A stretch of 63,824 nucleotides of DNA, filler included, from Reticulomyxa filosa (taxonomy: Eukaryota > Protista > Foraminifera): NCBI GenBank assembly GCA_000512085.1. It is 12 parts of 12 records of this genome, joined end to end, with 100 filler letters (N's around TTAATTAATTAA, not from the genome) between each part and the next. Parts side by side here need not be neighbours in the genome. Positions count along the whole stretch, not along the records: positions 1 to 3,173 come from ASPP01036433.1; 11 more parts are not named here. The stretch is one strand, 5' to 3'. The notes below the pieces were generated by a model, which saw nothing but the letters and a program-made list of their open reading frames with translations, made no database searches and was not told the origin of the DNA. Below, one piece after another: positions 1 through 48,247 of the stretch (within the stretch, counting starts at the first letter, position 1; every line of letters starts with the position of its first letter). The position numbers and the translations under genes are program-made.

Positions 1-719
1 CGATTCTCTTCATATAGTGCCATTTAGGTATTGTAGTTTTTTTTCAATCTACTGTATTAAAATTATTGCTTATATTTTTTTTATTCTCTAAAAATGATCA
101 CAATAACCAAAATGATGTTTATTTTGGAAAAAAAATTTTTGAAAATTCTTGCTTGATTCATTTTTAAGCAATATTTATCTCGTTATTATTGCCAGTAGCG
201 TTTGACCAAAGATAGATTATGTAAAAAAATATGACAAGTCCATACTATAGATTGCTGAACTCTGAAAGAGTTGAGGAGCATCCAGTGGGTTAAACTTCTC
301 CACTATTCTTACTTTGTTACTTTTCTTTACTTTCCTTTTGTTATTTCGTTTTATTATTTAATTTACTCGTTTTACAAAAACTACTATCCTCTTTTAAGTA
401 AACACCTCTCGTATTACAGTTAGTGCACCAACACTATCAGCAAACGTTCCACAGATGATTTTTGTTTTTAGTGCATTTTCCAAAATTGTTGTTATTCGTT
501 TCCGTTACGAAATTTTGTTTTTTTTTAAAATTAATGCCAATTGAATAAAAATTAATATAGAACCCAATGCAAAAACGGGCAATGCGATCTTAAAACATAT
601 TGTTCCAACAAAGCAAGTAGCAAGCTTCTGTAACCAGCCGAGAAGTGCGTCTCTCTGATAGCATGCAGGTAAGGAAAACAAAAAATATTGCAAGCTGATG
701 ATTTAAAAAGTTCAAAATA

Positions 720-3173
720 TTAAAGTACTTCTTTTTCAAAACATTCATTTTTCAAATATTTGGAGATGTCAGGTCTCTTCAAACGGTCAGCAACATCCAA
801 AAGTTCCTTATTTGTAAATTTTCACACATTCGCAGACATTGACAACATTTAAGTGTTATTATATCATAAACAACATTATGCACTACCTTATTTTTCTGGT
901 CTAACAACTCCTTCCATACGGTTAGAGGCATTTTTTCTTCCAAGCACTTTAAGTTGCATAATGCATTTATATTTTCGCTCGACACAACCAGATGTATCAT
1001 ATTTAGATTTTCCAAGCCATGACACTTTTTCTGTTCTCATCATACATTCAAACAAAAAAAAACCCATTCATACTAATATGAAGAGATCTTATAAATAGAC
1101 AAACATTTGTTGTCATCTTCCAAAAATACAGGTTTTTGTCGTTCATTGGTGTTAGCAAAGATATAATGTCTTCATTCATTTCAGGGGACTTCCATAGTGC
1201 GAACATCAAAGGCGTTCGGCCATACTAAATGTGTATTTGTAATTGAATTATTCTTTATGTAATGATGCATTAAAATCAAAACAACATAAAAATAAAAAAA
1301 AGCGCATATTACACTTTATTTCCTTCCTTTAGCTCAACTTCGTCACGTGTGATAACAAGTTTCTCCCAAGATTCATCAGGCACATATTTCTTCATCAACC
1401 TTAATCGTTCTTCTACATTTGGTAAAGCCTTTTCGAACATTAAGTGCAATATGTTTTTCCCAATCTATTTTTTTATTATTATTGAAATAGATTTATTTAT
1501 GCATCATATTTGAAACTTAAAAAGAAATTTCTCATAAAAAGTGTTAACTCCATATTCATTACACTTGCATTCCCAGAACTTATAATTCTCTTTGAAATTT
1601 TGTGGAATAAGTGATTGTATGATATCATCATTCAATTTCGATTGGTGTATTAATGCATTCATCAATGGAGTCAATCCTTGCTATTTTTCCAAGCAAACCA
1701 ATTCTGTGTATTTTTCAATTATTCAAATCCACATATGCGGATATATATTGTGCGTGTATAACACACATTGATGTCTTGGATTTCGATAAACTTTTGCCAA
1801 TTGTCTTTATCAATCTCTGCTTTCAGCCAGTTCAAGAGCTCCAAAACATTGACATTCGTATTTCGGACAGCAAGACCGATGCAAGACTGCTTTTTCTGTA
1901 ACGAATATCGAAACAAAGCATTTGGTTATTTCATTTGTTATATATGCATATATGTTATACATTCGTTTCTTAACGTTGTTTAATGAATTCCATACACTAT
2001 ATTTGCTCTTTTCATTGGAAGGAACGAAGAGTTTTATGCATTCAATAGATCTTTGCTTGGATACGGCATACATTAAAGGGTATGTACCATTCTCATCCGC
2101 TGTGATGAGTTGAGATTGAACAAACTCGTCAGAAAAAAAGTCACCGTTGTAAAAAAGCAGATTGGCATAATCATAGGTAACGTTGGAATTGTTAGCCATC
2201 TGCGATATGAAATTTTCACCGTTAGGACCGAGCGAGTGAATGAACGATGAATGGCGGAACTTATTGGGGAAATAAAACATAAGATTGGCCATGTCTCTGC
2301 GATTGAATGAGGCAATTTGCAATTGCTTGTCGAATGGCAATTTATCCATAATCTCGAAAGAACCCTGTATAAACGATTCTTGTCTCGATATCTCATAAAA
2401 AGGATGCGTTTTGTAATTGAAAACTGATACAATTTCAAGCAGGAACTGCACTTCACCAACAATACTCTTTCCATCTTTTTTGAATAAAATATTTATTCTC
2501 ACGTCTTTGTTCTTTTGAGGGATGTTGAATGATGTTATTTCGTTATTGTCGTTATCACTTTTCCCTTGTTGTGCATCCTCAAATCCATTCTTTACGCGTA
2601 CCACTTTGAATTTCTCAGAATATTGTGGAGAACGGATCAAAGAAGTGAAGTGTTCCAATCCTTGCACTAAACGTTCGATATTGGGGAATGTGGCCTGACA
2701 TCGTAATACATCAATAATGTGAGCTGATTTTGGAAACTTTTTATCTTTGTATTCTACTTGTGCTTTCAATTTGCATTGGTTGTGCGTCTTAATTGGACCT
2801 GGTTCAAACTTGCATCCTTCACAACTCCGAAAGATATTTTCCATTTCAGTTTGGAAGGAGTCGTTCATGATGTGAGCCCTGGCCAATAACTCGTTCAAAT
2901 ACATCTCAAAGTCGTAGACGTGTTTGAGATTAAAGGTCGCCTCATTGCTGTTGATTTGCATTTTCAATAACTTTTGTTCGTTAAATATGCTTTTTACACC
3001 ATTGAGATCGTTGTCTTGGCGACATTCTTTGTCCTTGTCTCGATGTTTCACGCATGATTTAATATTGAATTGGGTCAATTTCTTGTAGTTGTCCAGAGAT
3101 TCCTCATTCGATGTAATCTCTTTCTCAAATGCTTTCTTAAGTTTTTTCTCTGCTTTTTCGATTTCCTTAATGC
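720..3173 (-). CDS. RelA/SpoT-synthetase-like nucleotidyltransferase domain + C-terminal ankyrin-like repeats (5'-truncated, 7 exons)
   Basis: Frame is open to the contig edge at 3173. Motifs GPIK..K...Y, IIDVLRC, VRVKNGF, DVRINILF, GEVQFLL and HPFYEISR. Predicted GT-AG exons 3173-1975, 1895-1767, 1680-1549, 1464-1339, 1224-1105, 1024(or 1030)-887, 806-720. These encode GTYPLMYA, QGLTPLMNA, GKNILHL, YGRTPLMFA and ELLDVAD...KYL; stop TAA at 722-720. Confidence 0.75.
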
Positions 3174-3273
3174 NNNNNNNNNNNNNNNNNNNNNNNNNNN
3201 NNNNNNNNNNNNNNNNNTTAATTAATTAANNNNNNNNNNNNNNNNNNNNNNNNNNNNNNNNNNNNNNNNNNNN
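3174..3273. other. Artificial contig spacer (N44-TTAATTAATTAA-N44)
   Basis: Identical 100-bp all-frame-stop linker repeated 11 times. Confidence 0.98.
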
Positions 3274-8971: not shown

Positions 8972-9071
8972 NNNNNNNNNNNNNNNNNNNNNNNNNNNNN
9001 NNNNNNNNNNNNNNNTTAATTAATTAANNNNNNNNNNNNNNNNNNNNNNNNNNNNNNNNNNNNNNNNNNNN
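8972..9071. other. Artificial contig spacer
   Basis: N44-TTAATTAATTAA-N44. Confidence 0.98.
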
Positions 9072-9078
9072 AAAAAAA

Positions 9079-9112
<34 letters not shown>

Positions 9113-9169
9113 TTACAGTTACAATTATTGTTTCTTTCATTAGCCATTGCATTTAAAAACCCAAAGAAA

Positions 9170-10195
9170 AAAAATTCCAACTCAACTTCGCCTTCGTTGG
9201 TCTCTACGAACGCGCCAGCATTTGAAATTGTCTTGATCCGACAAGAAACGACATCTCCAACGCGAATTCCAAGAGATATGGCATCAGTGATCAACGACTT
9301 GCCTTTTCCAAAGCTATACAAATATATGTTATTATGTGCATATTGACACAAAGTATAATAAAAATTTTTTTTTTTTTTTTTAAAAAAAAATAAACCATCA
9401 TTGTCAGGTGCAGTAATTTCGACAATGGAATTGTCAAAATTGACTTCCAAATCACAACGTGACTGTATCTCGATGAGTCTTTTGGTCTGTCCTCCCGGTC
9501 CGAGGAGCAAAGCAAAGTCACGCGGTTCCAATTTGCGCAAAGCGATTTTCGGGGCGTGGTTTTTGAGTTCGGGCCTGGATTTTTCAATGGCTTGATTCAT
9601 AGTCTCCAAAATATGTAGACGTGCTTTTCTAGCTATATCGACAGCCTGAATCAAAATATCCAGTGGCACTCCTGGCAATTTGATATCCATTTGCACGGCT
9701 GTGATTCCTTTGATCGTCCCGGCAATCTTAAAGTCCATATCGCCAAATTGGTCTTCCAATCCGAGCACGTCAGTCAGCAATCGATAGTCTGCAATGCTGG
9801 TCTTGAGTTGATTCGTTACTTTCTTGGTCACCAAACCCATGGAAATGCCTGCGGCGGCATTGGACATGGGCACTCCTGCGTCCATGAGTGCGAGAGACCC
9901 GCCGCACACGGATGCCATGCTGGACGAGCCATCCGACGACGAAATGTTCGACGCCACGCGCACAGAGAATGCAAACGTGTCAAAGCCTGGAAGCAATGGC
10001 TCCAGTGCCTTCCCGGCCAAAGCCCCGTGGCCTTGCGCACGGCGCGATTTCGTCACATTCTTAATTTCGTGCGTGGCGTAAGGAGGCATGTCGTACTCAA
10101 AGTACAGTCGCTGCAGGTCGTATTCATAATTGTATACGTTTACATTGCGCTTGCGAGCCAAGTTTGGAGGACCCAACGTCGTCGTGCACAAGCTC
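9170..10195 (-). CDS. PNPT1: Polyribonucleotide nucleotidyltransferase (PNPase), internal part: RNase PH domain 2, KH, start of S1
   Basis: RRAQGHGALA, SDGSSSMASVCGGSLALMDAGVP, DVLGLEDQFGDMDFKIAGT..GITAVQMDIK, KH motif LLGPGG; intron at about 9315-9396. Confidence 0.93.
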
Positions 10196-18579: not shown

Positions 18580-21500
18580 CTACTCTTCGTGTTCAATAGG
18601 TCTGATCTCCTCATGATCACTTTCACTAGCAATGCCTTTGCTAACCTTCAAAGGATTTACATTTTCTTTTTCATTGCCATCGTTATCTTCTATTTCTGGT
18701 GCTGACGATTTTTCATGAGACTTTTCAAATGGATCTCGATGCATTGCACCATCGTCTTGATTTTGTCTATTCATAACATCTGCCATTTCAACGTCTGCGC
18801 GATCTTCCTTATCGTTTGCTTTAGAGTCCTGTGGATTTGCAGGATCATCGGCTATTTTCCCACGCTTTACGTTAGCTATAAGACATACATATGAAACTAT
18901 TTTAAAAGTGGATTTGTATTGATCACATTCAATCAAATATTGTTTTTTTTGTTTTTTTTTCACTCCTCTCGTCTCTCGCTCAATGTAAAATACAAAACAT
19001 TACATTTGTTCCAGTTTTTCTCCAATTCTGTTTTGAAGGTCGAAAAATATAATTGTAATCCGACATTATTTCTGAAAATGCCTTCCAAGAGATCGGAGAC
19101 GCTGCCTTCCAACACTTTGAAGTGTTCCCAGCTATTGTTGTCAAAAAAAAAATTAGTGAAATAGTAATGACATCAAAATAAAGAAACAAGGAATGTTAAC
19201 AAGGTGATCTTATCTCTGTTTCTGGATCTTCGAATGAAGTGAAGTAGTCCAGGCAACAAGACAAAGTATTTCTTTTCGTGGCAATTTTCTTCGCTCAATA
19301 CGAGATCCAACGTTTTGGTGACAAAGGTTTGGAAATACGCACGACTTTTGATGGCGACTCCGCCGACGGAAGCCAAAGCTTTGCATAGCGTATCGAGTGC
19401 GGCCTCTTCCACCGGGACGCTTTCATCGTTGCACAGCATTTTCAGAGCATCGAGCATCATTAATTGCAGTTCCACGTGATTGGTTTTGTCCAAATGGCCA
19501 AGGAATTGTCTGGTTATGTCGTTGAAGCGACCTGAAACACCTTCTTTAAAGCGTTGCACGTTTGCATTGATCTCTGTTTGTTCCATATCGGACCTGTTAT
19601 ATATATATATTGCATGTATATATTATGCCTAACGAGATGATACAACACAAAAACTCAACTCTCCAGGTAGTGTTATGATTTGACGAGACAGCAACCGGTA
19701 ATGGAATTTGGAAATGACCAGCGTTCCAAAGGACAACATTTCGACGCAATTGTAAATGCACAAACGAGCGGCACTCATTAGAGCACGCATGTGGTCGTGT
19801 TCTGTTTTTAAAATGATTGACGGATTCAAAGGATCATGCAACAATGGACGACTCAATGCGAATTGCAACACTTGCAACAGCAGATCTTTCAAATTGGGAA
19901 ACTCGCTGTTTTCGTCAAACAGCTCGCGATTGAAGACACTGCTAGTCAATTCATTTTCATTGGCGTGAGGACAGAACAGCGGCAAAATGTCGATCAAATC
20001 CAAAGATAGTGACACAAACAAACTGTCGTGGGCCTCTCTCCACTCGTTTATTTCATCGTTGAAGTTACCAACCAATTTTTGGCATAAAAAGTGTAGCACT
20101 TTGCAGTAGCCACTTCGGAGTTGCTGTAACGACCCAATGCTGTTGGCATCGGCACGTGTGTGATCAAGTCCTTTGGTTTGCCACATTATGCAATAGATGA
20201 GTGCAGGAACCAATCCTTCCAACATCTTTTTTTGTGTTCATTTCTTTAAAAAAAGAAAAAAATTCATTGTTGCAATGGAGAAGAGAATACAAAACTGAAT
20301 GATGAACATGATCATTAACAACCGAGTCAAGTAATTGCTGTAACTCGTCTCCAAACGACAATTGACCAATATTCATATGTTGCAATAGGCCATTCATTCG
20401 ATACAAATTGCTAAAGCAGTCTTGTAGACATTTCTTTGCTTCTTCTGCTTGTTCTTGTTCTTCATCATTGTTATCATCATCCTCATTGTCGTCGGTGTGT
20501 TTATGTTCACGTTCCTTTCGACCTCGTTGTTGACCTTGCTTTAACGCCTTTGTCGTCATTGTCATCATCCTCTTATCCTTATCCTTATCATTGCCTTCGT
20601 CATAAAGACGATGCAAGTTGACTCCATCGTCCAAAGCGGTTTGAATGTCGACAAGACTCTTGTGCAGCTGCTTGGCCAAGTCGGTGGCCATATCAAAGAC
20701 CGACTTTTGGGACTCGTGTTTGTAGTCATACGTGACGAAGGTCAAGTGGGCTAATGACTTGCCGATCATCGAGTACATTTGCGACTCGACATAGTATTTG
20801 GCGTCCTGAGCTAAATTGGGTTGTGACGAAAACAACGGTTCGCCAGTCGGCTTGGGTTCACTTTGGGCCACGGCCTCTGCAAATTGCTTCCATCGCTCGT
20901 TCCAGTTGACACGTGTCCAATGATCGATTCGAATTTCGTGTTTGAAGAACGAGTTCTTCAGCGACGCTAGAATCTCGTCCAGACACTGCTTTCCCAGAGA
21001 AGAGTTGAATCCCGAAATGGGAATCAATGACACCATTTGGATGACGGCAAATGACTTGAGAGGATCTGTTTGAAATGTGCGCAGCAATGTTGGCAACGAT
21101 GGTAACACGTCTTTGCAAATATTTGTCATTTGTTCGGCGCGTCTTTTTTCCACATTCGCTTTTTCAGTCGCGCGAGGCTTTCTCGGATTGGACACGAGTG
21201 CATCCAGTCTTCCATTGGCCGCCTTCATGGCGGAGAGCATTAAAAAGCACAAAATGGTCTGTCCAAAGTCGTCCAAGTCGAGTTCGCTAATGATTTGCAA
21301 CACCTTTTTGTTGTTGTGAATATCTGTCTCAGACTCGCTGCTCTCCGCGTCCTTGGAGTTCTTCTTGTTGTGACCGGCATTCAATTGCATGCGACGCAGC
21401 ATTCTTTCGTTTTTATCGTTTTGCGATTCTTCCGTGGATAAAATACCCTCGATCATCATGTCGAAGCGTGACAACACGACCAGCTTGTCTTGCATGCCAT

Positions 21501-24403
21501 AGATGAGATAGTCGCACACTTGCTCGTAATTGTAGTACAACGCACTCGTCCCAAGGGAATGCAAAAAGTGTGCATTGTACGTTTCGCACAGCTCTGCCTT
21601 TTGCAACGCGTGCAGCACTTTGGTATTCAATCCGATGATGCGATCTCGCACCAAAGAGATTAACTCGCGTAGATCATCGCGATAGCGTTCAAATAGTGTC
21701 ACTTTCAATTCCAATGGCTCCTGACTACTTGCGTCCATACTCTTCTGTTGTTGTTGTTGTTGTTGTCGTTTGTAATCTTGTGCTGTTGTCGCCATCAACG
21801 CTGCGTCGTCGAACGTGTCGTAAAAGATAAAGTCTGCGCCCACTTTGCGGATTTCATCGTTCTCTTCCAAAAAACAGTCCAGGATTTCGTCGCCCTCGGT
21901 GGCGGCCAATTGGTCATTGCGCAGCATCAGATTGATCAATGCGATGGCGTTGGACGCCACGCTGGCATTCGCGTCTTTGACTAAAAAGAACACCAGATGT
22001 TTGATTCGATCCCAAAACGTGCTCAGCGTGTGCATGCGATCGCGATGAACCGACACACCTGTCGACGCGCTCGTGATTCGCGTGCGTCCGTCTTGTCCTT
22101 TGTTTCGAACGGGGGACGACTTTACACGGTTTTTTCCATGGTTGCGATTGTCTGGGTCAAACAATGACTGCAAGTTAGTCAACGCGCATTCACGTACTTT
22201 TGCGTCCTTTTTTTGAAAAAATATATATATGCATGTACATATATACATATATACATATATACATTTATACATATATACATTTATACATTTATGTAATGCC
22301 ATCATTAAACAAAACAAAACTCGATCGGAAAGTGCACCCTGCAAATATCGCCAATACGTGTCATTGAAAAAAGACAATGGACTCGGGTCGGCGTTGACCC
22401 ATTCGGTAATGCAGTTCAAAGCCCAAATGCGGATGTCACTGTTCGAGTCTTTGGATTTGTACACAATCACATTTTCAAAAATAAACGTGACAATTTTTTG
22501 AATGGCTTCGATACGCTGTCGAAAATCGAATGCGCTTTCTTCTAATTTGGTCATCTTTGCACTCTTTTTATCTTTCTTCGGACTTCGCAGACTCTTCGCT
22601 TGATGGTTGCGTTTCTTTCTCTCTTGTTTCGACTCTTCGCTCTTGTCATCCTCAATCTCCTCGTTTCCTTGGCCTGATTGCTTCGATTGCAATGCCTTCT
22701 CCGCTCGCAGTCGCCGTTCACACTTTTCCAAGCTCTGACGGGCTTTCGCCATCAAGTGCACACATCCGCTGCCGATGCAAATGGCCGTGTACACACCCAC
22801 TTTACGCAAGTGTGTAATTTTCGATTCTCTTTACATATACATATTTATATACATATATATTAATCTCAAAACAAAGTTTTGTAAGGTACAAAAAAGACCT
22901 GGCCAACAATTCACAAAATCTCAAAATACATGCAATGGAATCGTCTCTATTGTCATACAACAAGTCTTCCAAGGCATTGATAATATGTTGCCAAAACGAT
23001 TTGTAGCGTGTCATCAATTGTTTTTTGCTCAATATTTTGGCCTTGTCGGTGTCGTCCTTTTTGTCTTCTTCTTTTTCTTGCTCCGCCAATTCGTGTTCCT
23101 TTTCGACTTCATCCTCCATTTGATCCTGTTGCAACTTTCGCTTGTCGAAAAATAAAATTTCCTGTTTTTTGCCGTTTACAAATATGTCATGCCATTTCAT
23201 ATACGTGCCATTGTCTTTGTCCAATTGCACGTCGTTCGCTTCATCCGAAATGCCAAGCTCTTCTCTCACTTTCTTTATCATCGCCTGTTTGTCGGGCGAA
23301 TGCTGAACACTTATTTCGATCATGTCCATTATTTTCCACTTCAGTTTTCTGTCCACTGGTGCGTTCAACGTCAAGTCCGGTTTGTTCAATTCCCATGTTC
23401 GAATGCCTCCACACTTGCGTTTATATTTTTTATTTTATGTTTTATGTATATCATAATAATAATAATTTTTTATTATTATTATTATCATTATGCTCCAAAC
23501 AGATACATATTTTTTGTTGAGTGTTGTTCGGACTTTTATTACAAGTGGAATAACATTTAAATTTTTTTTTAAAAAAAAAAAAGCTTAACGTAAAACATGA
23601 AATTGGTCAAATCCATTCCAAATTCATCGTCGGCATTTAATTCCATTGCCCAGTCTTGTAATTTGTCGTAATTTGCCTTCATTGAGGCATTGCCATAAAA
23701 CCATTCTTTTTTTTTTTATTTTATTAATGTTTGATTATTTTTATCATTTCAATGGCAATGTAAAGAAAAAAAAAAATGAAAAAATCCAAACTGATCATTT
23801 GCTCAACGCGGTTGTTGTATTGAACAAAACATTCTGGGAAATTGGGATCAACACCCATTTCTGCATCGTAATCATTTTGTCCCGGAGATTTAGCTCTGGA
23901 TCGACTTCTCCTATTCTTTTTCGATTCGGGGTCAAATTCCGATTCATTGTCACTTTCGCGCACCTTATACTTTTTAGATCGACGCTCATCTTCGTCGTCT
24001 GAATGTTTGCTTTTTGATACTTTTTTTGTCTTCACTGTTTCTTTTTGTTTTTTTGATGATTTTTTGGCACCCCGACGAATGCGTTTTTGGCTCCTTTTTT
24101 TATTTTTTATTTTTATTTTATTTTGTGCTCTCCTTTCACCATCAATCATATTGGCAACAATTTGTAATGTGTAATCGAGTTTACTCAACGCTTCTGACTC
24201 ATTTTGGGCTTTTTCATTGACTTCACTTTCTTTCACGTCCTTCAAATTTCGCTTTCGTGTTCGTTGGGAGGTTCTAGTTGGCCTACAATAGGTTTTGTTC
24301 TTGCTTTAGAACTCACTTCTAGTACCAAAAAAAAAAAAAGAAAACTCAGCTTTGCTGCAACGTCTTTTTCAACAATAGCTCGTGAACGAGTTCGTACAGG
24401 CAT
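18580..24403 (-). CDS. SCC3: Cohesin subunit STAG/SA/Scc3 (multi-exon)
   Basis: Stromalin conserved domain IFENVIVYKSKDSNSDIRIWALNCITEWV...FFNDTYWRYLQGALSD|KDAKVRECALTNL; HEAT-like remainder; ORFs 23724-24245, 22802-23389, 20164-22809, 19629-20225 and 19173-19586 join via introns. Confidence 0.85.
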
Positions 24404-26462: not shown

Positions 26463-27521
26463 ATAGAAGAAGAAGTGGAGCTAGTTCTTCAAAGTTGGAT
26501 TCGAAGTTTAGATGTTAAATTAATATGGATCGGTGATCTTGATAAAATTATTGCAAAATACGTTTCGTGATTTGTATTGTATTTTTTAAATTTGAATAAG
26601 TTGTTCATTTTAATATTGGTTACAATATAGGCCAAACATTTTAGATTGCTCAAAATTTTAGAAGGACACGACGATAAAGTAAAAAGTGTAAGGTTTTCAA
26701 AAGATGGTCTCAGGATTATTTCATCATCATTTGATAAAACAATCCGAATATGGGATATTGCATCAGGAGAACAAATCAAAACTTTTAAAGGCCATTCATA
26801 TTGGATCTACGTCGCGGAATTCTCTCCAAATGAGCATACTGTTGTCTCATGTTCATGGGATAATACAATTCGATTTTGGGATGTAAAATCAGGAGATGAA
26901 TTGATGCGATTTGGAGGGCATTTAAATGCAATATCAGATGTAAATTATTCTCCAGATGGTCAAAAGATTGCGTCGAGTTCATCTGATGGAGCAATACGAA
27001 TATGGGATGTAGGATCAGGACAAATGACTAAAAAACTAATCGGACATTCTGGAGGTGTATTAAATGGACAATTTTCACCAGATGGTCAAATGCTTGTATC
27101 ATCTTCATATGATAATACAGTCACCTTATGGGATGTGGCATCAGGAATAAGACTGAAACAATTATTAGGACATGTAGGCTTTGGAACGCGCGCGAGATTT
27201 TCTCCAGACGGTCGATTTATTGTGTCATGTTCAAATGATAAAACTATTCGCATATGGGATGTGAAATCAGGAAAAGAATTAAAAAAGATAGAAGGGCATT
27301 CAGATACGATAAGAGAAGTAAGATATTTTCCAGATGGACAAACTATTGTTTCTTGTTCATCTGATCATACAATTCGTTTGTGGGATGCAAAGTTAGGAAA
27401 TGAAATGCAAAGATTGGAAGGACATTTCGATCAGGTGACAGGAATTGACGTGTCACCAGATAGTAGTACAATTATCTCATGTTCTTATGACAAAACGATT
27501 CGAATTTGGAGATGTCAATGA
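26463..27521 (+). CDS. WD40 beta-propeller protein (7 repeats) with N-terminal family module
   Basis: GH...FSPDG..IVSxSxDxTIRIWD repeats; upstream exon [32 protein letters not shown]; start not resolved. Confidence 0.93.
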
Positions 27522-28662: not shown

Positions 28663-29714
28663 AACAAAGAAAGAGTTGATTTTATTTTAGAAAATTGGAA
28701 TCGATCTTTGTCCATTAGAAGGGGATGGATCGCTGATTTCAATAAAATAATCCTTCAATACGTTTAGCCTGTTTATACTGTACGACATTGTTTTTTTTTC
28801 CTACTTTCAAAACCATTTAAAAAAAGGTCAAATATTATCAAGAACTAGCAGTGTTACGTGAACATTCAAGTGGTGTTAGAAGTGCAAGATTTTCTCCAGA
28901 TGTCACCAAAATTGCATCCTCTTCTATTGATAAAACAATCCGAATATGGGATGTAAAATCAAAAAAGAGAATACACTTATTAGAGGGTCATTCAGATTTG
29001 ATTAATGACGCACAATTTTCACCAGATGGCAATACTATTTTATCCTGTTCGTGGGATAGCACAATTCGATTGTGGGATGCAAATTCAGGAGAAGAAAAAA
29101 CAGCAATAAAGCGTGATTCAAGTTGTGTAACGTGTGCCCAATTTTCACCAGATGGACAAACAATTGTGTCAAGCTCATTGAGTAACATTGTACGAATATT
29201 GGATGTGAATTCAGGGCAATTGATTAAAACAATGGATGGGCTTTTTTGCGAGGTATTTAATGTACAATTTTCACCAAATGGACAACAAATTGTTATATCT
29301 TCTTATGACAAAACGATTGGGATATGGGATGTAAGATCATGTAAACAGGTACAGGAATTACTAGGACATTCATTGGAAGTAATGAAAGCACGCTTCTCTC
29401 CAGATGGTCAAATTATTGTGTCATGTTCGAAAGATAAAACAATTCGATTGTGGGATGTGAGAACAGGTCGAGAATTAAAAAAATTGTTAAGACATTCGAA
29501 TTGGACGACAGATGTAAAATTCTCATTCGATGGAAAAACAATTCTTTCATGCTCAAAAGATGAAACAATTCGATTATGGGATGTGAAATCAGGCAATGAA
29601 ACACAAGAATTAAAGGGACATACCAATTCAGTAACAGGAGTAGATATTTCACGAGACGGAAATATGATTGTGTCATCTTCTTATGATACAACAATCCGGT
29701 TGTGGGAACTATGA
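28663..29714 (+). CDS. WD40 beta-propeller protein (7 repeats), tandem paralogue
   Basis: Same repeat type; upstream exon NKERVDFILENWNRSLSIRRGWIADFNKIILQY at 28663-28761; start not resolved. Confidence 0.93.
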
Positions 29715-32215: not shown

Positions 32216-32881
32216 TTAAGCTCCGCGGAACTTCCGCCGTGCAATTTCGTTAGTAATATTATACATATCCGAGCCAAACAGTACAAAAGAAATATGTGTA
32301 AGAAATCTCTTTTTGTGCTGTGCACATGTGTCCAGTGCAATTTCCATGGCCGCCTCTTTGGGATATCCGTAGACCCCACAAGAGATGGCCGGAAATGCAA
32401 TGGTTTTGATTTTGCCGTTTTGTTCTTCTGCCAAATTCAATGAATTTTTGTAACAACTTGTCAATAGAAGATGTGGACTTTGGACATTACCAAAAATAGG
32501 CCCAACCGTATGTATAATATAAGACGCCTTAAGGTTAAAACCAGGAGTTATTTTGGCTTCCCCTGTCCGACATCTAACTCCTGAACTTGAAGCGGCTACG
32601 TGCTGTAAACAAAATTCTCGCAGTTGTGGCCCTGCTGCACGATGGATTGCCCCATCTACACCACCTCCACCTAGCATCACTTCATTTGCCGCGTTTACTA
32701 TGCAATCACCTTCAAACTTTGTTAAGTCTCCTTGCTTCACTATCAAGTTGACACCGTTCGGCATGACGTACGATTGTTCAAGGTTAGAACAATGTCTCTT
32801 TCCGTTTAGTGAAATATTATCACTCAAACGGCTGAAGAAACAACTGTCTTGCCAAAATTTCATTCCTAATCGTGCGATCAT
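32216..32881 (-). CDS. Macrodomain protein (MacroD/YmdB-like ADP-ribose / O-acetyl-ADP-ribose hydrolase)
   Basis: GDLT, IVNAAN..LGGGGVDGAIHRAAGP, IIHTVGP, AFPAISCGVYGYP; intronless. Confidence 0.93.
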   Translation of the reverse strand: MIARLGMKFWQDSCFFSRLSDNISLNGKRHCSNLEQSYVMPNGVNLIVKQGDLTKFEGDCIVNAANEVMLGGGGVDGAIHRAAGPQLREFCLQHVAASSSGVRCRTGEAKITPGFNLKASYIIHTVGPIFGNVQSPHLLLTSCYKNSLNLAEEQNGKIKTIAFPAISCGVYGYPKEAAMEIALDTCAQHKKRFLTHISFVLFGSDMYNITNEIARRKFRGA

Positions 32882-32959
32882 TAACAAATATTTTTTTTTT
32901 TGTGATGTTTATTGTGTTCCCCTTATTCATTTATTGGGTATTCGATCTAGTGAACAATT

Positions 32960-39864: not shown

Positions 39865-42418
39865 TTAGTCCTTCTTTTCTTCTGTAATCAAATTATCAAA
39901 ATCGAAATCAGTGTTCTTTTGCAAATTTCTTGCTTTTGCTTCAATGGCCAGTTCAAAGTTTTCAGGCGTGATGAACCCTTCATTATCAACAGCCAACTCG
40001 ATCATAGCTAAGAGCGCGCTAATGCCAATTCCGGAGCTCTTTTCAGGGAATTTGTCACAAACGTCTTTGATACTAGGTTTGCATTTCTTGCCATATGCAG
40101 ATTGTTCCATGACCGTTTCGGTTTCCTTTCTGGAGTGGACCAAGGGGATGTCCCTAACCCAATCAAACACTTTATCAATTTGGAGCGTGCGAATGGCCTC
40201 ATAAGTGCACGTGGCGATAACAAAGATTTTGCGGTTCAATTCGCTGGGATTGCGACGGATGCTCGTCAAAATGGTCTGCAAGACGGGGTTGCTAAAGCGA
40301 ACGCCCACTGTGTAGCCAATCAATCGTTCCAAGTCGTCAATAATGACGACCGAAGCATCGGACTTGTACGCATCATCAAATATTTTGGCGATGCGTGCGC
40401 AAACCGTGCCATCGGCAGCGCCGACATAATCATCGGCACGAATGACGCGAACAAAAGGGAAGTTGGCTTCTTTGGCCAAAAAGCAGGCAAGCGCAGATTT
40501 GCCACAAGCCAAGTCACCTTGCAGCAGCAATGACTGTCGATTCATGACATTGCTGCGCACCAAGCGAGTGACAATTTTTCTGCTTAGGTCAATAATTTCT
40601 TCGACATCGTCATTGAAGAGAATAATACCGCGCGAAAAGTTGATTTGCAAGTCGTCGTCATTCACACCAAATTCGGGCTGCACTTCTTGCAAGGCCAGTT
40701 CAAAGTACTCCTTGGAGATCTTGATGTTGCGCATTTTCTTCAAGTCGATCTTCTGCAGATTTTCGACATCGATATGCTCTTGCATTGCATAGGACACGGC
40801 GCTGCGCACGACTGCCTCGATTTCTGCACCGCTGTAGTTTTTGGTGCGCGCCGCATATTCGCTCAACGAAATGTCGTCCGCCAAAAAGCCATTTTCTCGA
40901 AGCAAGCGAGTATGAATGCGGAAGATTTGTTCCCTGCCACGTTCATCAGGGAGTCCGATTTCAATGTGCACCTCCAAGCGTCCACTGCGAAGCAAGGCCT
41001 CATCGATCAGGTCTTTACGATTGGTCATGCCAATGACAAGGATGTTGTTCAACGAGTTGACACCATCGATCATCGACAGCAACTGGTTCACCACCGTGTC
41101 ATGCACGCCAGTGCCGGTATTGGTCGATCCTCGCTGCTTGCAAATGGCATCGATTTCATCAAAGATGATAATATGCAGTCCAGCCTTGTCGCCATTTTTT
41201 TGCTGGTCCTCTTGCGCGTCGCGGAACAATTCTCGAATATTCTCTTCCGACTGTCCGACAAACTTGTTCAACACTTCGGGTCCGTTCACCACCTTTGGTT
41301 CCCTTTCTGTCAACATCTTGCCAATGCTCCTCGCGATCAGCGTCTTGCCCGTTCCAGGGGGGCCGTACAGCAACATGCCTTTCACGTGCTTGACTCCCAG
41401 TTGCTTCACAATATCTGGCGGGTACAGACGACTGGCAAACGCTCTTCGGAAGATCGTTCCAAATTGCATATCCAATCCACCAATGCCCAACGACTCCGGG
41501 TCCCAATCTGGCCCAAAGGCTCGAATAGGCCCTGCCTGGACCAACACCAGATTCGGGTTGTTCGCTGTCATCAGATTGATCACTGTGTCATCGTCGATCG
41601 TCGCGTATTGCACCGATTGCATATTGGCCAGACGCACTTTCGCAGAAAGCGCTTTTTCTTCCGTCTCGTGGCTCGTCGGGTCCTTGGGCGTGTACAGGTT
41701 CACAATACGTAACGACAGCCAATATGTCGTCCCTTGCTGCGGCCAACTCACAATAAATCTTTGGTCTTTACAAAAGATCTCATCTTTCAACTTCGTCAAG
41801 ATATGCGTTTCGATCTTCTCCGCCTCCACACGGGTCTCCACTTTCAACAGCGTGTCCACCACCACTGTCATCGTGTGTGCGACAGGCCGCTGCGGGTTGC
41901 TGCTCGTGCACTTCTCCACGTGCACCAACGAGCTCAGGTTTTGATGGATTGCCATGCGTTGCAACGCTGTCGTTCCCAATGCCTTTCGGTCCAATTTATC
42001 TTCACCTGTCTTCTTTGCATCCCCTTTGCTCTTTGCTTGGCCCGCGATATATGCTCTTTCAAATACACAAACACGTTTACATTACATTTTTTTTTTTTTA
42101 TAAAAAAAAAAATACTAATGTTATACGTTTTTTTTTTTTTTTTTTTATGTACTGATCCCCTTTCCCCCCCCCTTTTTTTTTTTTTTTAATACACTCCAAT
42201 CACGTTTTTAAGGTCTCTGGAGTAGTTGTTTTTTTTTTCCATTACCTACAACGGCCTACAACCAATTTCCCCACCCAAACAAAGTCATTCTCTGCTATGT
42301 TCAGATCCTTCATGTCTTCTGGGTGCATATAAAAGCAATTCGTGTACCAGTATTCTTGGTTCACCAAACCCGTTACCGTAAAATTACTCGTTGTCGAGGT
42401 TGTTGTTGTTGACGTCAT
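39865..42418 (-). CDS. NSF: Vesicle-fusing ATPase NSF/Sec18
   Basis: GIGGLDMQFGTIFRRAFASR, GPPGTGKTLIAR, IIIFDEIDAICKQRG, GMTNRKDLIDEALLRSGRLEV; second AAA domain; short 5' exons from ATG at 42418. Confidence 0.96.
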
Positions 42419-42760: not shown

Positions 42761-44546
42761 ATGATGTCACCAAAAATACAATTTATAATTGCAATATTCT
42801 TGTCATGGTGTAGTTGGGCGTTTTCAAAAAATTTGCAAGTGATAATTCCAACGGATGGAATGAACATCACAAGCAGTGTAAAGTTTGCTCCAGGTACGTA
42901 CTATCTGGCCCATGGCGTGAACATTGCCGCTGACAACATAGAAGTAGATCTAAACAACTGCAGTATTGTGGGAAAGGACTTTGAGAACGTTGGAATATCG
43001 ATAATTGGCCACAATAACGTGAAAGTACAAAATGGTAACATCAGCAGCTATTATTATGGAGTTAAACTGGTAGATTGCAATTTTGTTTATATTATGTCAA
43101 ATATCATATCAAACAATTGGTTGGATCCAAATGCATACAACACAACACCTCCATGGTTGAATATCAATGTGACACCAGATGATTTTGGCGATAGGACCAA
43201 TTTGGGAGGTATATGTTTCGATTTGCGTATTATTTTTATATTGGGGTTGAATGAGATAAAACAAATACAACAGGTGGACTATGGGCACAAAATTGTAGCA
43301 ATTTGTACGTAACTGGAAATGGGATGAATGGACAAGAAAATGGTATGGATTTGTTCTATGTCAATGATAGTGAGATTTTTGGAAATGATTGCAGTTACAA
43401 TGTTGGCTGGGGTAAGTTATTGTACTCAATGTACTTGTTATATCGTGCAAACTGTAGATAAAACAATCGAACATATATCCTTTTGTGAAGGTATTCATTT
43501 GTACAAGTCGAGTGATAACACAATACAAAATAACGTGGCAAACAATTGCACCAGATATGGTCCTGATCCATATTATACATGCGATACTGCTGGACTATTG
43601 TTGAATTGCCAATGTCATAACAACATTGTTGTGGAAAACCAGTTTTTGTATGGCGGAGATGGTATTTTTTTTTTTGTTTGTTTATTTTTGTTTTTGTTTT
43701 GTTAGTGTAATATTACCACATACTTTTGGATTTGTTAAGGTATATTCATGAGCGGATTTCCAAGAAACTCAGAAAAATGAATGCTGTCCGTCAAATAATA
43801 ATTATATTGCCAACAATGATTGCCGTTATTCCCCAAATAATGCAATTGAAAGTACTTTTGCACAAGGCAATGTGTTTGCAAACAATGTATTGAATGGAAG
43901 CAATTATGGCTTGTGGCTAGGATACAGTCACAATGGTAATGTTGTGAGTGGAAATATTATTGCAGATTGTCATACTGCAGGTGTTGCTATTGAGCATGGA
44001 AGAGACAACGTGATAACAGAAAACTTGATTATTGGAAACTCTAATGGTATTTTATTATGGACGGACATGACTGTTCATTTTCCAAGTACACAATATCAGT
44101 GCTTGGATATTCCAAATCAACAATACAGCAGTAATTATACAGTAACCAATAATCGTATTATCAACAATCAAGTTGGAATCAATTTTGTTAACACAACATA
44201 TAGCAATGTTTATAATAACTTTGTATCCATTCACAATAATAATTCTATCACTGCTCAAGATTTAGAATGGAATATTGGAAATTTGTGGAATTTGCTTGAA
44301 CCAGTAAACATGATTAACATTGTTGGTGGACCTTTCATTGGTGGTAACTATTGGAGTGATTACACTGGACATATGGACAACAGTGGGAATGGATTTGGAA
44401 ACATTCCTTATAATAATGGATTTTTGAGTGGTGAAGGAGATCAATTGCCTTTAGTTGTGATAAGCAGTAGAAATGAGAACACAACAAATCGCATGCAAAT
44501 AGAATCCGAGATAATTGAAAAATTTAATGTAAAAAATTTTCCTTGA
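42761..44546 (+). CDS. Secreted right-handed parallel beta-helix (NosD/CASH-like) protein, 4 exons
   Basis: Signal peptide; Asn-rich PbH1 repeats; SPNNAIESTF..SNYGLWLGYS; C-terminal NIVGGPFIGGNYWSDYTG..GFGNIPY..DQLPL; introns at about 43209-43273, 43413-43490 and 43662-43739; +1 frameshift near 43775. Confidence 0.85.
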
Positions 44547-44861: not shown

Positions 44862-47800
44862 TCATTTCACAGCCACACTTAACAAGTTTGCCATCTCTCT
44901 TGAACTTAATGTTGCTTTATGATAGTCTCCAAATATTTCACTGTATATTTTCCATGACTTTTCATAATATTCATATGCTGTTGCCCCAATATTCCATTTT
45001 TTATAAATGCGCTCGCAAAGTTCCAATACAAATAACCAATTACTCTTTTTCATCAACCACAGCTCTTATTTTTGCTGCATTATCATAACATTCAATTGCT
45101 CCGGAATGCTGTCCATTGCCATCAAGGGCAATTCCTAAATTGAGATAAGTCTCAAATACATCAATATGACTGGATCCAAAAGATTCCAATCTAATTTTTA
45201 AAGATTGTTCATAGCATTCAATTGCTTTGGTGTGTCGATCCATTTCTTCATAATTACATCCTAATTCGAAGTAAGAATCAGCGACATCAATGTGATTTGG
45301 ACCAAATATCTCTAGTCTAATTTTTAAGGCTTTTTCATGACATTCTATCGCCTTATCATATTGTTCGCTGCAAGAATAAGCGCATCCTAAGGCATCATAA
45401 CATTGTGCAATGTCGTTGTGAGCAATTCCAAGAATTTTTAATCTGATTTTCAATGAAGCTTCGTAAAAAGTAATTGCTTGATCATATTGATCGTCATCAT
45501 AGCATGCCTTTCCTAAATTGTAGTATGTAAGAGCAACTTCAGAATTGTTTGGACCAAGCATTTTGGTCATTATTTGAACCGCATTTTTCATACACTCTAT
45601 TCCTTTCGCTTTTTGTTCTGTATTACAATAAATCACTCCCAAGCAGGAAAGGGTACGAGCAACATCAACATGATCTAGTTCATAAATTTCGAATCTGATA
45701 CCGAGGGATTTTTCATAACATTCTTTTGCTTTGTCGTATTGTGCTACTTTATCATAAACAGTTGCTAAATTATCATAAGATGAAGCAACTTCAGTGTGGT
45801 TTGGTCCAAGAACATCTAATCTAATTTTCAATGCCTTTTCATAATATTCAATTGCCTTCTTATATTGAACCTTGTAATAATATATATTTCCTAAATTGCT
45901 GTAAATTAGTGCAACATCCACATGATTCATTCCAAAAATTTTCAATCTAATTTGCAATGCTTTTTCAAAATAATCCGTTGCTTTATCACACTCACGTTTA
46001 CTATTATGAGTAACACCTAAATTATAGTATGATAATGCAATATCTGCATGATTACTTTTATAAAGCTCTAATCTAATTTTCAACGCATTTCCATAACATT
46101 CAACGGCCTTGTCGTATTGCACTTTATTCAGATATGCGACACCCAAATTGTCATATGATGAAGCAATATCGTCGTGTTTCAATCCAAAAACTTCTATCCT
46201 AATTTTCAATGCCTTTTCGTGATACTCAATCGATTTGTCAAATTGATTTTTATAGTAATATATCAACCCCATATGGTAATATGAGTAAGCTACGCTAACG
46301 TGATTTTTCCAAAAATGTCAAGCGAACTTTCAATAGCTTTGCTATGACATATGAGAGCTTTATCGTATTGTCTGTGCTGAAAATATGCATACCCCAAATT
46401 ATTGTTAAAATCGGCGACATAAGGATGGTTGACACCAAAGGTATGCACAGAAAGTTCTATAGATTGCTTTAGACAAGAACAATCTTTCAAAATCTTTTAT
46501 TGTATAACTTTCTTTTGCTACGTCATCTAGAATTTGAAGTTTTGTGAAAATATCATAATGCAGTGCAGTATTCCATTGAATTGGAGGAACAAGACGTGCC
46601 AACTTGGGATCAATTGTTGCATCCTTTGTGACAAACAGTTCCATTGTTATATTGGCATTTCCTTTGCACTGAATTTCACAACCGACAGCGTATGCATTGC
46701 CATCAATATTTATATCATCCAATACCACCACTTTATTTTTAATAACATACAAACAATATTCACCAAATACTTGTTTGTCCGCTCGCCCACTTTTAATGAA
46801 GTTACTGAATGAAGTATCTTCATTAATTTTGTTTGTATCTTCGTGCGATATTTTATCCCATTGAGAAGTATTGCTAATAACTACGATTAATCCTTGTTCT
46901 TTTATTTTGATCATTTGTTCAACCATTTTAGCTGCTTCAACTGTTGATGTTTTCCAATTTTCATTCCAATGTTTATGATAGTTGAAAGATTTTTTAATAT
47001 TTTTGGAAATTGAGATAGTGTCATTTGTTTCTTGCTTAATATCATCATTATATCGAACAATCTGTGTTGAAGATGTAATAGATCGTGGAATTAAAACAAT
47101 ATCAAAATTTGAATTTGAAATTGCCTGTGCAACTTGTGTATCTAGAATATGATTATTTGTCAATTTAATTACTTGATTGATAATAAATGATAAACTTTTA
47201 TTCATATTCTTTTCAATTACTTGACAAAATATTTCTGTAAAATATTTTTCTTTTTTTTTTTAAATAACAATTGGTTTTTTGGAAATATTTGCATAAATAT
47301 TGAAAATATCAACATCTTGATTATATCGTATTTTATTGTCATCATATTTAATTTCTTTTGTATTTTTGATTCGATTTGAAGAAGAGATATTTTGTTGATA
47401 TATAAATTCAATTTTGATAAATATTTTTGGTTTTCCAATAAAATAATCTGTTTTTGTTATAATATCTTCTTGAATATCTTGAAAAGATTTTTTCTTTTCA
47501 TCACTTGTGATTATAATATCTTCATTATTTCCATATCCACACCAAACAAATATTAATCCATCATATGATTTATTATTTGTATTATCATTTAAATTTAAAA
47601 CATATTTTAAAATAAACTTATTCAAATCATTCAAAGTAAGTGATTCAGTACTTATATTTTGTAAATTAAAGGTATTAAATACTTGATAACCAAATTTTTC
47701 TTTAAAAAGTTTTTGTAATAGAATCAGATCATTTTTGACATTTTGCAAATATGCCATTTTTTTGTATTTTATTGCTCCTGCCAATAACACCAAGGGATTC

Positions 47801-48247
47801 TTCATTTCATTCGAAGATAGTGATAATGGTGATGGCGAAGGTGATAACAATGACGACGTTAATGGTGATGCTAGTGGTGATGCTAATGGTGCTGTTATTT
47901 CTTTTTTTTCCTTCACATCTTTCTTCTTTGTGGACTCTATCCAATATTTTAGTTCAATTTATTTTGCAAGACGTTAATCGCAACGTCTGTGCACTCTTGA
48001 AATAAAAGAAATAACTTGGCTGAAATTCAGCAAAGAAAAGAAGGCGGCCATCTTTAACAAGTCTTCTAAGATGCTGGTTTGTTGCAATATCAAATCCGTC
48101 TGCGTCAGTAACTTTTATCAATGTATTACCCCGTTGTTCACTTTTGCTCACTTCTATTATTTGTTCTTTCAAACCTGTAACCGTCAAATTCGTTAAGTTC
48201 AGTCTATATTTTTTTGACCCAATTGTCACAATGGCTTTAGAAGACAT
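44862..48247 (-). CDS. Ubiquitin-fold (PB1/CIDE-N-like) + inactive caspase-like (peptidase C14) + about 11-12 42-aa TPR repeats
   Basis: NPLVLLAGAIKY..NVKNDLILLQKLF..YDGLIFVWCGYG..FIGKPKIFI; TPR unit FGxNHxDVAxSYxNLGxxYxxxxQYDKAIEYYEKALKIRL; ORFs 47954-48247, 47260-47916, 46405-47205, 46290-46490, 45040-46272 and 44862-45056 join by an intron and by frameshifts in homopolymer runs. Confidence 0.8.

Follow-up and report, generated by a model that had tools for sequence, protein, structure and literature searches.

A large, ankyrin-flanked protein family with a predicted RelA/SpoT synthetase fold in the foraminiferan Reticulomyxa filosa, and RFI_35231, a probably impaired copy

What might a domain resembling the RelA/SpoT alarmone synthetases do in Reticulomyxa filosa, a foraminiferan without a plastid? 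The question is raised by a gene in a 63,824-nucleotide stretch of the R. filosa genome (the window), in which short contigs alternate with 100-base spacers. The gene sits on contig 1 (window 1-3173), and in a protein search its product proved 100% identical to a record carrying the source name Reticulomyxa filosa RFI_35231. A preliminary description had proposed a RelA/SpoT synthetase fold, marked by six ordered motifs and fused to ankyrin-like repeats; all six motifs are indeed found, in order, in one minus-strand frame. Our best reading, held with moderate confidence from motif comparisons and structure models, is that RFI_35231 belongs to a foraminiferan family of ankyrin-flanked, synthetase-fold proteins, of which the intact paralogues are likely ATP pyrophosphotransferases and RFI_35231 is likely an impaired duplicate. 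We found no literature description of this family, in a search that scarcely covered subscription papers and supplements; tables of RelA/SpoT homologues (RSHs; e.g., in 10.1101/575399) might list it.

The fold is carried by structure rather than by profiles. The Pfam family PF04607 (RelA_SpoT) did not match the RFI_35231 protein at E<=10, nor any of 8 R. filosa entries, and it is absent from the matches listed for 55 homologues; several Tas1 orthologues are missed by it too. A phmmer search of the domain against PDB sequences likewise gave 0 matches at E<=10. In contrast, a model of the domain built with 90 homologues (predicted local distance difference test score, pLDDT, 92.2; predicted template modeling score, pTM, 0.86) retrieved small alarmone synthetases (SAS) in the top Foldseek rows, RelP and RelQ first, with a best E of 7.4e-7, so that of the two checks suggested in the preliminary description the profile failed and the structural match held. 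With VIA-align against 48,161 chains, ranks 1-9 were all RelA/SpoT-type: the best was 8vx3, a Streptomyces SAS (Z 14.1, root mean square deviation 3.5, 161 residues aligned), and RelP/RelQ scored Z 12.5-13.2, CapRel 11.6, and Tas1 10.8. Nucleotidyltransferases outside the RelA/SpoT type reached at most 9.9, and an identity as a cGAS/CD-NTase or TENT enzyme was excluded by this lower Z. Among viral structure models, phage RelA/SpoT and polyvalent proteins ranked top; in the ESM Atlas, the matches were clusters without a name and chiefly eukaryotic at 0.95-0.96, and one with a 34% share of RelA_SpoT at 0.91. We are practically certain of the fold, in the predicted model the pol-beta-like mixed alpha/beta one of the RelA/SpoT synthetase (SYNTH) superfamily, and of the protein family.

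Paralogues had been anticipated, and they are numerous. At E<=1e-3, the domain matches 524 clusters at 50% identity among 1.84 billion representatives, and these matches carry the motifs nearly invariant, which argues that the motif set is not due to chance. The 29 distinct proteins looked up comprise 10 from R. filosa, 2 from Bolivina argentea, 2 from Nonionella stella, and 15 from metagenomes. Named R. filosa entries number 20, RFI_35231 included, some of them partial and possibly pieces or alleles of one gene; together with regular spliceosomal-type introns, they rule out bacterial contamination. A deep-branching member (L077, 4971-5700, +), on a marine contig of 59% GC, seems to have an intron following its E-V codons, so that it likely comes from another eukaryote lineage. 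A word-index profile search yielded 31 proteins, none named bacterial, and tblastn of the intact paralogue P0006 against 50,697 phage records gave no match. A locus search with P0115 returned 5 metagenome loci, 2 of them the gene itself and 3 weak; one viral locus from that search was discarded as an off-frame chance match. Family members 1519-4335 amino acids long were sought and not found, which is weak evidence.

Motif statistics rest on the best 150 of the 524 clusters, aligned without segments of <100 covered residues (P0008 and P0009 were among those dropped), with residues 1-200 counted from window position 2940. Near-invariant in these 150 domains are P49, K51, R55, K59, Y64, D77, R80, C81, R115, K117, N118, Y144, D146, K148, N150, E163, Q165, K175, H179, Y182, and R186. 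All 21 signature residues are kept by 94 of 131 full-length homologues, and the family domain appears to be under catalytic selection. RFI_35231, as first reported here, has lost four near-invariant residues and kept the Mg-binding Asp and Glu. The changes are R55Q (column R in 144/150 homologues), Y144N (Y in 139/147), K148R (K in 144/146), and K175N (K in 127/138), at columns that are 92-99% conserved; they are its departures among 25 columns conserved at >=90%, and four or more changes at the 21 signature sites occur in only 4 of the 131 full-length homologues. Given the loss of four such residues, RFI_35231 is likely weakened or inactive, and the earlier caveat of a possible pseudoenzyme, raised for the Arg and the G-loop, falls on columns that are indeed conserved. 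The Arg then called expected is the norm in the family and in Tas1, whereas canonical RelA/SpoT enzymes have Ser.

Residue roles in RFI_35231 were assigned via motif spacing from FaRel2, an enzyme that employs R64, K66, S70, K74, D90, G93, R95, Y128, E145, and Q147 (PMC11782079); by that spacing the family has Pro at R64, Arg at S70, and Arg at G93. Replacement of the G-loop Tyr by Ala turned four toxic small alarmone synthetases (toxSAS) non-toxic (10.1101/575399), and FaRel2 Y128A lost tRNA modification (10.1101/2021.04.30.441581). Wear is not confined to RFI_35231: of the 16 R. filosa members, 6 differ at 3-15 of the 25 conserved columns and 3 at none, and close duplicates, 73-92% identical, bear differing subsets of changes. 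The R. filosa entries P0014, P0020, P0033, and P0035 are more heavily worn, with 7-15 changes at conserved columns, and 7 full-length homologues have >=3 changes, 5 of them R. filosa entries.

The preliminary description had compared the domain with bacterial and plastid (p)ppGpp synthetases, which proved to be the wrong branch. The canonical signatures R-x-K-x3-S-x3-K, D-x2-G/A-x-R, Y-x-S-x-H, and E-x-Q-x-R are not found in the family (the last two in 0/31 family rows shown vs 11/11 canonical rows, PhRel having A for S), and signatures of a phage clade, some of them also those of Tas1, are present; that the family motifs match this type, and are not of the RelA/RelP type, is new here. The family profile gave 2 matches to PDB sequences, neither significant; the one of RelA/SpoT type, Tas1 at E 2.1 with the same first motif, served as a lead only. 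Degenerate DNA patterns for the first motif yielded 25 viral and 18 bacterial loci, with D-x2-R and E-x-Q downstream, by eye, in 42/43 (L016 is cut by a contig end); L032 is a Tas1 orthologue (E 1e-72), and the phage row L017 matches Tas1 (E 1.8e-14). After exclusion of 12 of the 43 loci as near-copies, truncated, or insert-bearing, rows were sorted by motif into a phage-rich G-Y-R-D group (n=22, 20 from the patterns), a Tas1-like group (n=12, 11 from the patterns), and a canonical group (11 of 15 sought, with RelA, SpoT, RelP, and RelQ labels assigned by motif).

With the pattern region removed, the phage-group profile was the best one for 143 of 144 family domains, with a median of 36.6 bits (14.4 for RFI_35231) vs 2.9 and 0.4 for the other two profiles, and the canonical profile reached >=15 bits on none of the 144. 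The hhalign probabilities against the family were 99.4% for the phage clade, 74.8% for the Tas1-like rows, and 0.4% for the canonical enzymes. Furthermore, the 3 matches of an unbiased profile search across 401 bacterial genomes were all non-canonical, with G-Y-(R/K)-D. Trees were computed quickly for 76 rows and carefully for 45 of these, with Apk2, FaRel, FaRel2, CapRel, and divRel not knowingly among the rows. In both trees, canonical enzymes separate from the family, the phage group, and the Tas1-like rows at full support (100/100 in the careful tree), at a point where long branches meet, and the family forms one group (100/100); it joins 6 phage rows at 88/85, below the bar of the tool, the tree with a basal position having an approximately unbiased test value (p-AU) of 0.30. 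Closeness of the family to the phage group is thus well supported by the profiles; a phage donor is possible but not proven. We also infer a tie to Tas1 chemistry, an indirect one because the sequence after the first motif gives Tas1-like rows no better a score than RelP/RelQ-like ones.

The phage clade, exemplified by the post-portal protein of Bordetella phage PHB04, shares with the family P-x-K-x3-R-x3-K-x3-D-Y, D-x2-R, K-N/K-D before the G-loop, G-Y-R-D, often followed by K/x-x-N, and K...H-x2-Y-E. It is the best profile match of the family and differs from it in being prokaryotic and intron-free, with no ankyrin flanks seen and with C81 and R115 missing in most rows. Fusion partners of its synthetase domains are MuF, minor capsid, DdrB-ParB, or InPase domains, and polyvalent, head-associated phage proteins with RelA/SpoT domains have been described (PMC5512222). 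The gene order in PHB04 is portal, synthetase (annotated as hypothetical only), a small open reading frame, and an HD hydrolase, a layout described for Apk2 (p)ppApp synthetases (PMC12226406, PMC10083569). The loci L001-L025, L057 (1715-3196, +), and L069-L071 belong to this phage-rich G-Y-R-D clade and are mostly under the Pfam cut-off; at L005, a PPDK_N-type gene lies downstream.

The (p)ppApp synthetase toxins Tas1/Apk1 (PDB 6ox6) and Apk2 resemble the family in fold, in the Pro and Arg of the first motif (RFI_35231 has Gln for that Arg), in D-x2-R, and in H-x2-Y. They differ in that the Tas1 G-loop reads Y-S-G-x-N vs Y-x-D-x-K-x-N in the family, which lacks the G-x-N given for Syn3 in PMC12226406; in a ~25-residue insert after E-x-Q in Tas1-like rows, whose direct profile match to the family is weak; and in being delivered toxins with separate immunity genes. 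The best structural matches, RelP/SAS2, RelQ/SAS1 (6ex0, 6fgk, 5dec, 6ewz), and the exported Streptomyces SAS 8vx3, share with the family the helix Lys pair, the Asp, the G-loop Tyr, and E-x-Q, all retained in RFI_35231 except the Tyr (Asn), but their identity is 9-16% and the profile match and signatures set them apart. CapRel (7ztb), like FaRel2 and PhRel a tRNA-pyrophosphorylating toxSAS, is similar in fold; its enzyme part is joined to an inhibitory sensor domain, which offers an analogy for gating by repeats. PhRel (Phrann gp29) groups with the canonical enzymes, unlike the family. Eukaryotic "divRel" synthetases, listed for Dictyostelium, ascomycetes, and diatoms and not for foraminifera in the part of PMC3153485 drawn on, are set apart from the family by that list.

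On this basis, we propose that intact paralogues would bind Mg-ATP via K51/R55/K59, D77, R80, and E163, with Y144 stacking the acceptor base, and would transfer pyrophosphate from ATP to the 3'-OH of a nucleotide or ribose. The acceptor would more likely be an adenine nucleotide or a 3'-terminal adenosine or RNA end than GTP/GDP, and the shell of repeats and helices may keep the enzyme inactive as long as no ligand is bound. In RFI_35231, turnover would be lowered by the lack of the Arg that binds phosphate and the Tyr that stacks the base, and the protein may then serve as a decoy, regulate active paralogues, or be a decaying duplicate. By analogy only, a defence role would fit the family expansion, the variable flanks, and the many worn copies. 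Bolder, and doubtful, is a scenario in which a phage alarmone-toxin domain from the Tas1/Apk side was acquired by Foraminifera and by one or more further marine lineages of eukaryotes and multiplied there into hundreds of cytosolic enzymes, gated by ankyrin repeats, that produce (p)ppApp or cap 3' ends of RNA in defence, with worn copies as decoys or regulators and one-repeat exons permitting sensor reshuffling, in short a eukaryotic alarmone immune system.

Several observations weigh against our best reading. The data do not reject a tree that places the family next to the canonical enzymes (p-AU 0.30), the structural score of Tas1 lies under those of RelP/RelQ and the Streptomyces SAS (Z 12.5-14.1), and downstream of the first motif the Tas1-like rows reach at best 11.8 bits vs 14.0 and 10.8 for RelP/RelQ-like rows. 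The family has D146 and K148 where Tas1 has G and N, and swapping Syn3-type motifs in Apk2 did not switch specificity (PMC12226406). We found no enzyme data for the phage clade, and a hydrolase neighbour occurs in only 2 of 20 phage-group loci, whose flanks are short. Moreover, RFI_35231 retains D77, R80, E163, K51, K59, and also Q165, and FaRel Y175A is still active in vitro (10.1101/575399). As toxSAS Tyr mutants are non-toxic and yet this one is active in vitro, an impaired RFI_35231 seems better supported than a dead one.

These same retained residues, D77, E163, Q165, K51, K59, and R80 for Mg and donor binding, leave room for a working RFI_35231 whose substrate has shifted, the changes at R55, Y144, K148, and K175 reshaping the acceptor pocket. 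K148R is conservative, the gene model has an intact frame and six GT-AG introns, R55Q recurs in the recent duplicates P0003 and P0004 and in P0022 (55% identical, from another source), and the FaRel mutant shows that activity may survive without the Tyr. We nevertheless consider a shifted substrate unlikely. Base stacking is impossible for Asn, the 6 worn R. filosa members show no common new pattern, and the changes are scattered unevenly over close duplicates (P0009 has the basic run with Arg, P0008 the Tyr and Lys148, and P0003 keeps Lys148), which looks like stepwise loss. That the substitutions mean nothing, in an unexpressed pseudogene or a mis-assembled contig of only 3,173 bases, is very improbable: each of the four changes is a single base away from a family-type codon, but the 652-codon model has six regular introns and no stops or frameshifts, and P0003, on another contig, bears two of these changes.

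The family as a whole could instead make (p)ppGpp, a second messenger for stress or immunity in the cytosol, with sensing done by the repeats. This would agree with the best structural matches being RelP/RelQ-type (p)ppGpp synthetases and with divergent synthetase-only RSHs in Dictyostelium, some fungi, and diatoms (PMC3153485). We find it improbable, as the guanine-reading Y-x-S-x-H and E-x-Q-x-R are missing from all family rows shown and the canonical profile reaches its 15 bits on no family domain. Quite improbable, too, is a different transfer by the same fold, of a nucleotide or pyrophosphate onto a protein or RNA recruited by the ankyrin repeats. The near-invariant C81, R115, D146, and K148 are missing from Tas1-like and canonical rows, the flanks are large and variable, and toxSAS enzymes set a precedent by acting on tRNA ends (10.1101/2021.04.30.441581); yet the VIA ranking puts RelA/SpoT-type chains above other pol-beta nucleotidyltransferases, and the basic triphosphate helix and E-x-Q are retained. 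We thus prefer ATP pyrophosphotransferases with an impaired RFI_35231 among them.

In protists, a large family of strongly conserved synthetase-fold proteins that Pfam does not see offers concrete enzymes for assay, and their motif type directs such assays to (p)ppApp and RNA 3' ends besides (p)ppGpp. The family is of real interest, the RFI_35231 copy less so: alone it would be the wrong copy to assay, and P0006, P0007, P0010, P0012, or P0015 would serve better, with RFI_35231 as an impaired control. The "Ras GEF" label on P0012 was dropped, no Ras GEF family being among the matches listed for the scanned homologues.

The gene model of RFI_35231 was built from candidate splice sites chosen by eye, of which a script kept the longest frame, a sixth intron being added by eye (Table 1). 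Unspliced, the minus-strand frame enters from the contig end (3171) and meets its first stop at 1810, the N-spacer starting at 3174; as the frame runs off the contig, the N-terminus is missing, just as the preliminary description stated, and an intact paralogue aligns to RFI_35231 from its residue 384 onward. The inferred model has 652 codons with no stop or frameshift and six GT-AG introns of 74-90 nucleotides, all in phase 0; the inner exons, of 40-50 codons, hold one ankyrin-like repeat apiece, and the stop lies at 720. Database models of the paralogues P0005, P0002, and P0008 support junctions 1-3, and junctions 5 and 6 are less sure. With one C-terminal repeat per phase-0 exon over window 720-1974 (-), skipping or shuffling of repeats would be possible without a frameshift. 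A second copy of the gene was looked for in the window and not found; on contig 1 we saw no following gene, and hence none of the immunity or hydrolase neighbours of the delivered Tas1/Apk systems.

The predicted fusion to ankyrin-like repeats stands, with a count of about eight in place of about seven: some three in exon 1 and five on single exons, plus a short last exon. A hidden Markov model built from only 5 repeats was too weak for counting. Pfam Ank_2 matches the database model of P0002 (E 2.1e-6, 28.6 bits vs a cut-off of 27.3), ankyrin chains are matched by the family profile (best E 1.8e-8), and the repeats after the domain in the paralogue model resemble IkB-alpha, Yar1, and Bcl-3 at a middling Z of 6-7. 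The repeats are genuinely of ankyrin type, though long (40-50 amino acids per exon) and divergent. In the model of P0006 (634 amino acids, pLDDT 89, pTM 0.84), a helical region, the enzyme, and then the repeats are predicted to pack as a single body; the N-terminal helical region had no clear match in a whole-protein structure search. Among the matches listed for the 55 homologues, ankyrin families flank the domain in 30, often on both sides, one has a WD40/coronin-type flank, one adds RCC1, and 24 have no match; no PAAR or MuF delivery domain is among them.

Table 1. Features of the RFI_35231 locus, in window positions (x, any residue; aa, amino acids; nt, nucleotides)
Feature	Position	Strand	Basis or remark
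RelA/SpoT-synthetase-fold domain (predicted)	2341..2940	-	predicted model, Foldseek, VIA
Motif GPIK...KAQVEY	2799-2749	-	
Motif IIDVLRC	2718-2698	-	
Motif VVRVKNGF	2604-2581	-	
Motif DVRINILF	2505-2482	-	
Motif GEVQFLL	2457-2437	-	
Motif HPFYEISR	2406-2383	-	
Syn1-type basic motif, family P-x-K-x3-R-x3-K-x3-(D/E)-Y	2749..2799	-	K51, K59 kept; R55 -> Q (codon 2776-2778)
Syn2-type motif D77-x2-R80-C81	2698..2718	-	D77 intact (putative Mg ligand); D 150/150, R 149/150
R115-x-K117-N118 motif	2587..2598	-	intact; K-N found also in part of phage clade
G-loop/Syn3, family Y-x-D-x-K-x-N	2491..2511	-	Y144 -> N (2509-2511), K148 -> R (2497-2499)
Syn4 E163-x-Q165	2446..2454	-	intact
C-terminal helix motif K-x3-H-x2-Y-x3-R	2383..2418	-	K175 -> N (2416-2418); H/Y/R kept
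Exon 1, 5' end cut: end of N-terminal helical region, synthetase-fold domain, ~3 repeats	1975..3171	-	sequence, paralogue model
Intron 1 (inferred), 79 nt, GT-AG, phase 0	1896..1974	-	spacing as in paralogue P0005
Exon 2, one ankyrin-like repeat, 43 aa	1767..1895	-	inferred gene model
Intron, 86 nt, precedes exon 3	1681-1766	-	inferred gene model
Exon 3, one repeat, 44 aa	1549..1680	-	junction same in P0002 and P0008
Intron, 84 nt, precedes exon 4	1465-1548	-	inferred gene model
Exon 4, one repeat, 50 aa	1315..1464	-	junction same in P0008
Intron, 90 nt, precedes exon 5	1225-1314	-	inferred gene model
Exon 5, one repeat, 40 aa	1105..1224	-	inferred gene model
Intron, 74 nt, precedes exon 6	1031-1104	-	inferred gene model; junction less certain
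Exon 6, one divergent repeat, 48 aa	887..1030	-	inferred gene model
Intron, 80 nt, precedes last exon	807-886	-	inferred; junction by eye
Last exon and stop codon (inferred)	720..806	-	inferred gene model

Elsewhere in the window lie ordinary eukaryotic genes, namely a PNPase-like fragment recognized by eye (9016-10194, -), a gene for a cohesin SCC3/SA-like protein (20164-22830, -), and one for an AAA ATPase resembling NSF (39865-42081, -). Two adjacent, intron-free open frames of ~297 amino acids (26631-27521, +, and 28821-29714, +) have seven WD40 repeats each, and a stand-alone Macro domain (E 3e-42) is found at 32216-32908 (-). A long TPR array (45040-47958, -) is preceded by two open frames without a Pfam match, the first of which resembles, by eye, a caspase-fold domain. 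Finally, 43752-44546 (+) encodes a right-handed beta-helix of NosD-like type (E 2e-21), which is found more often in prokaryotes.

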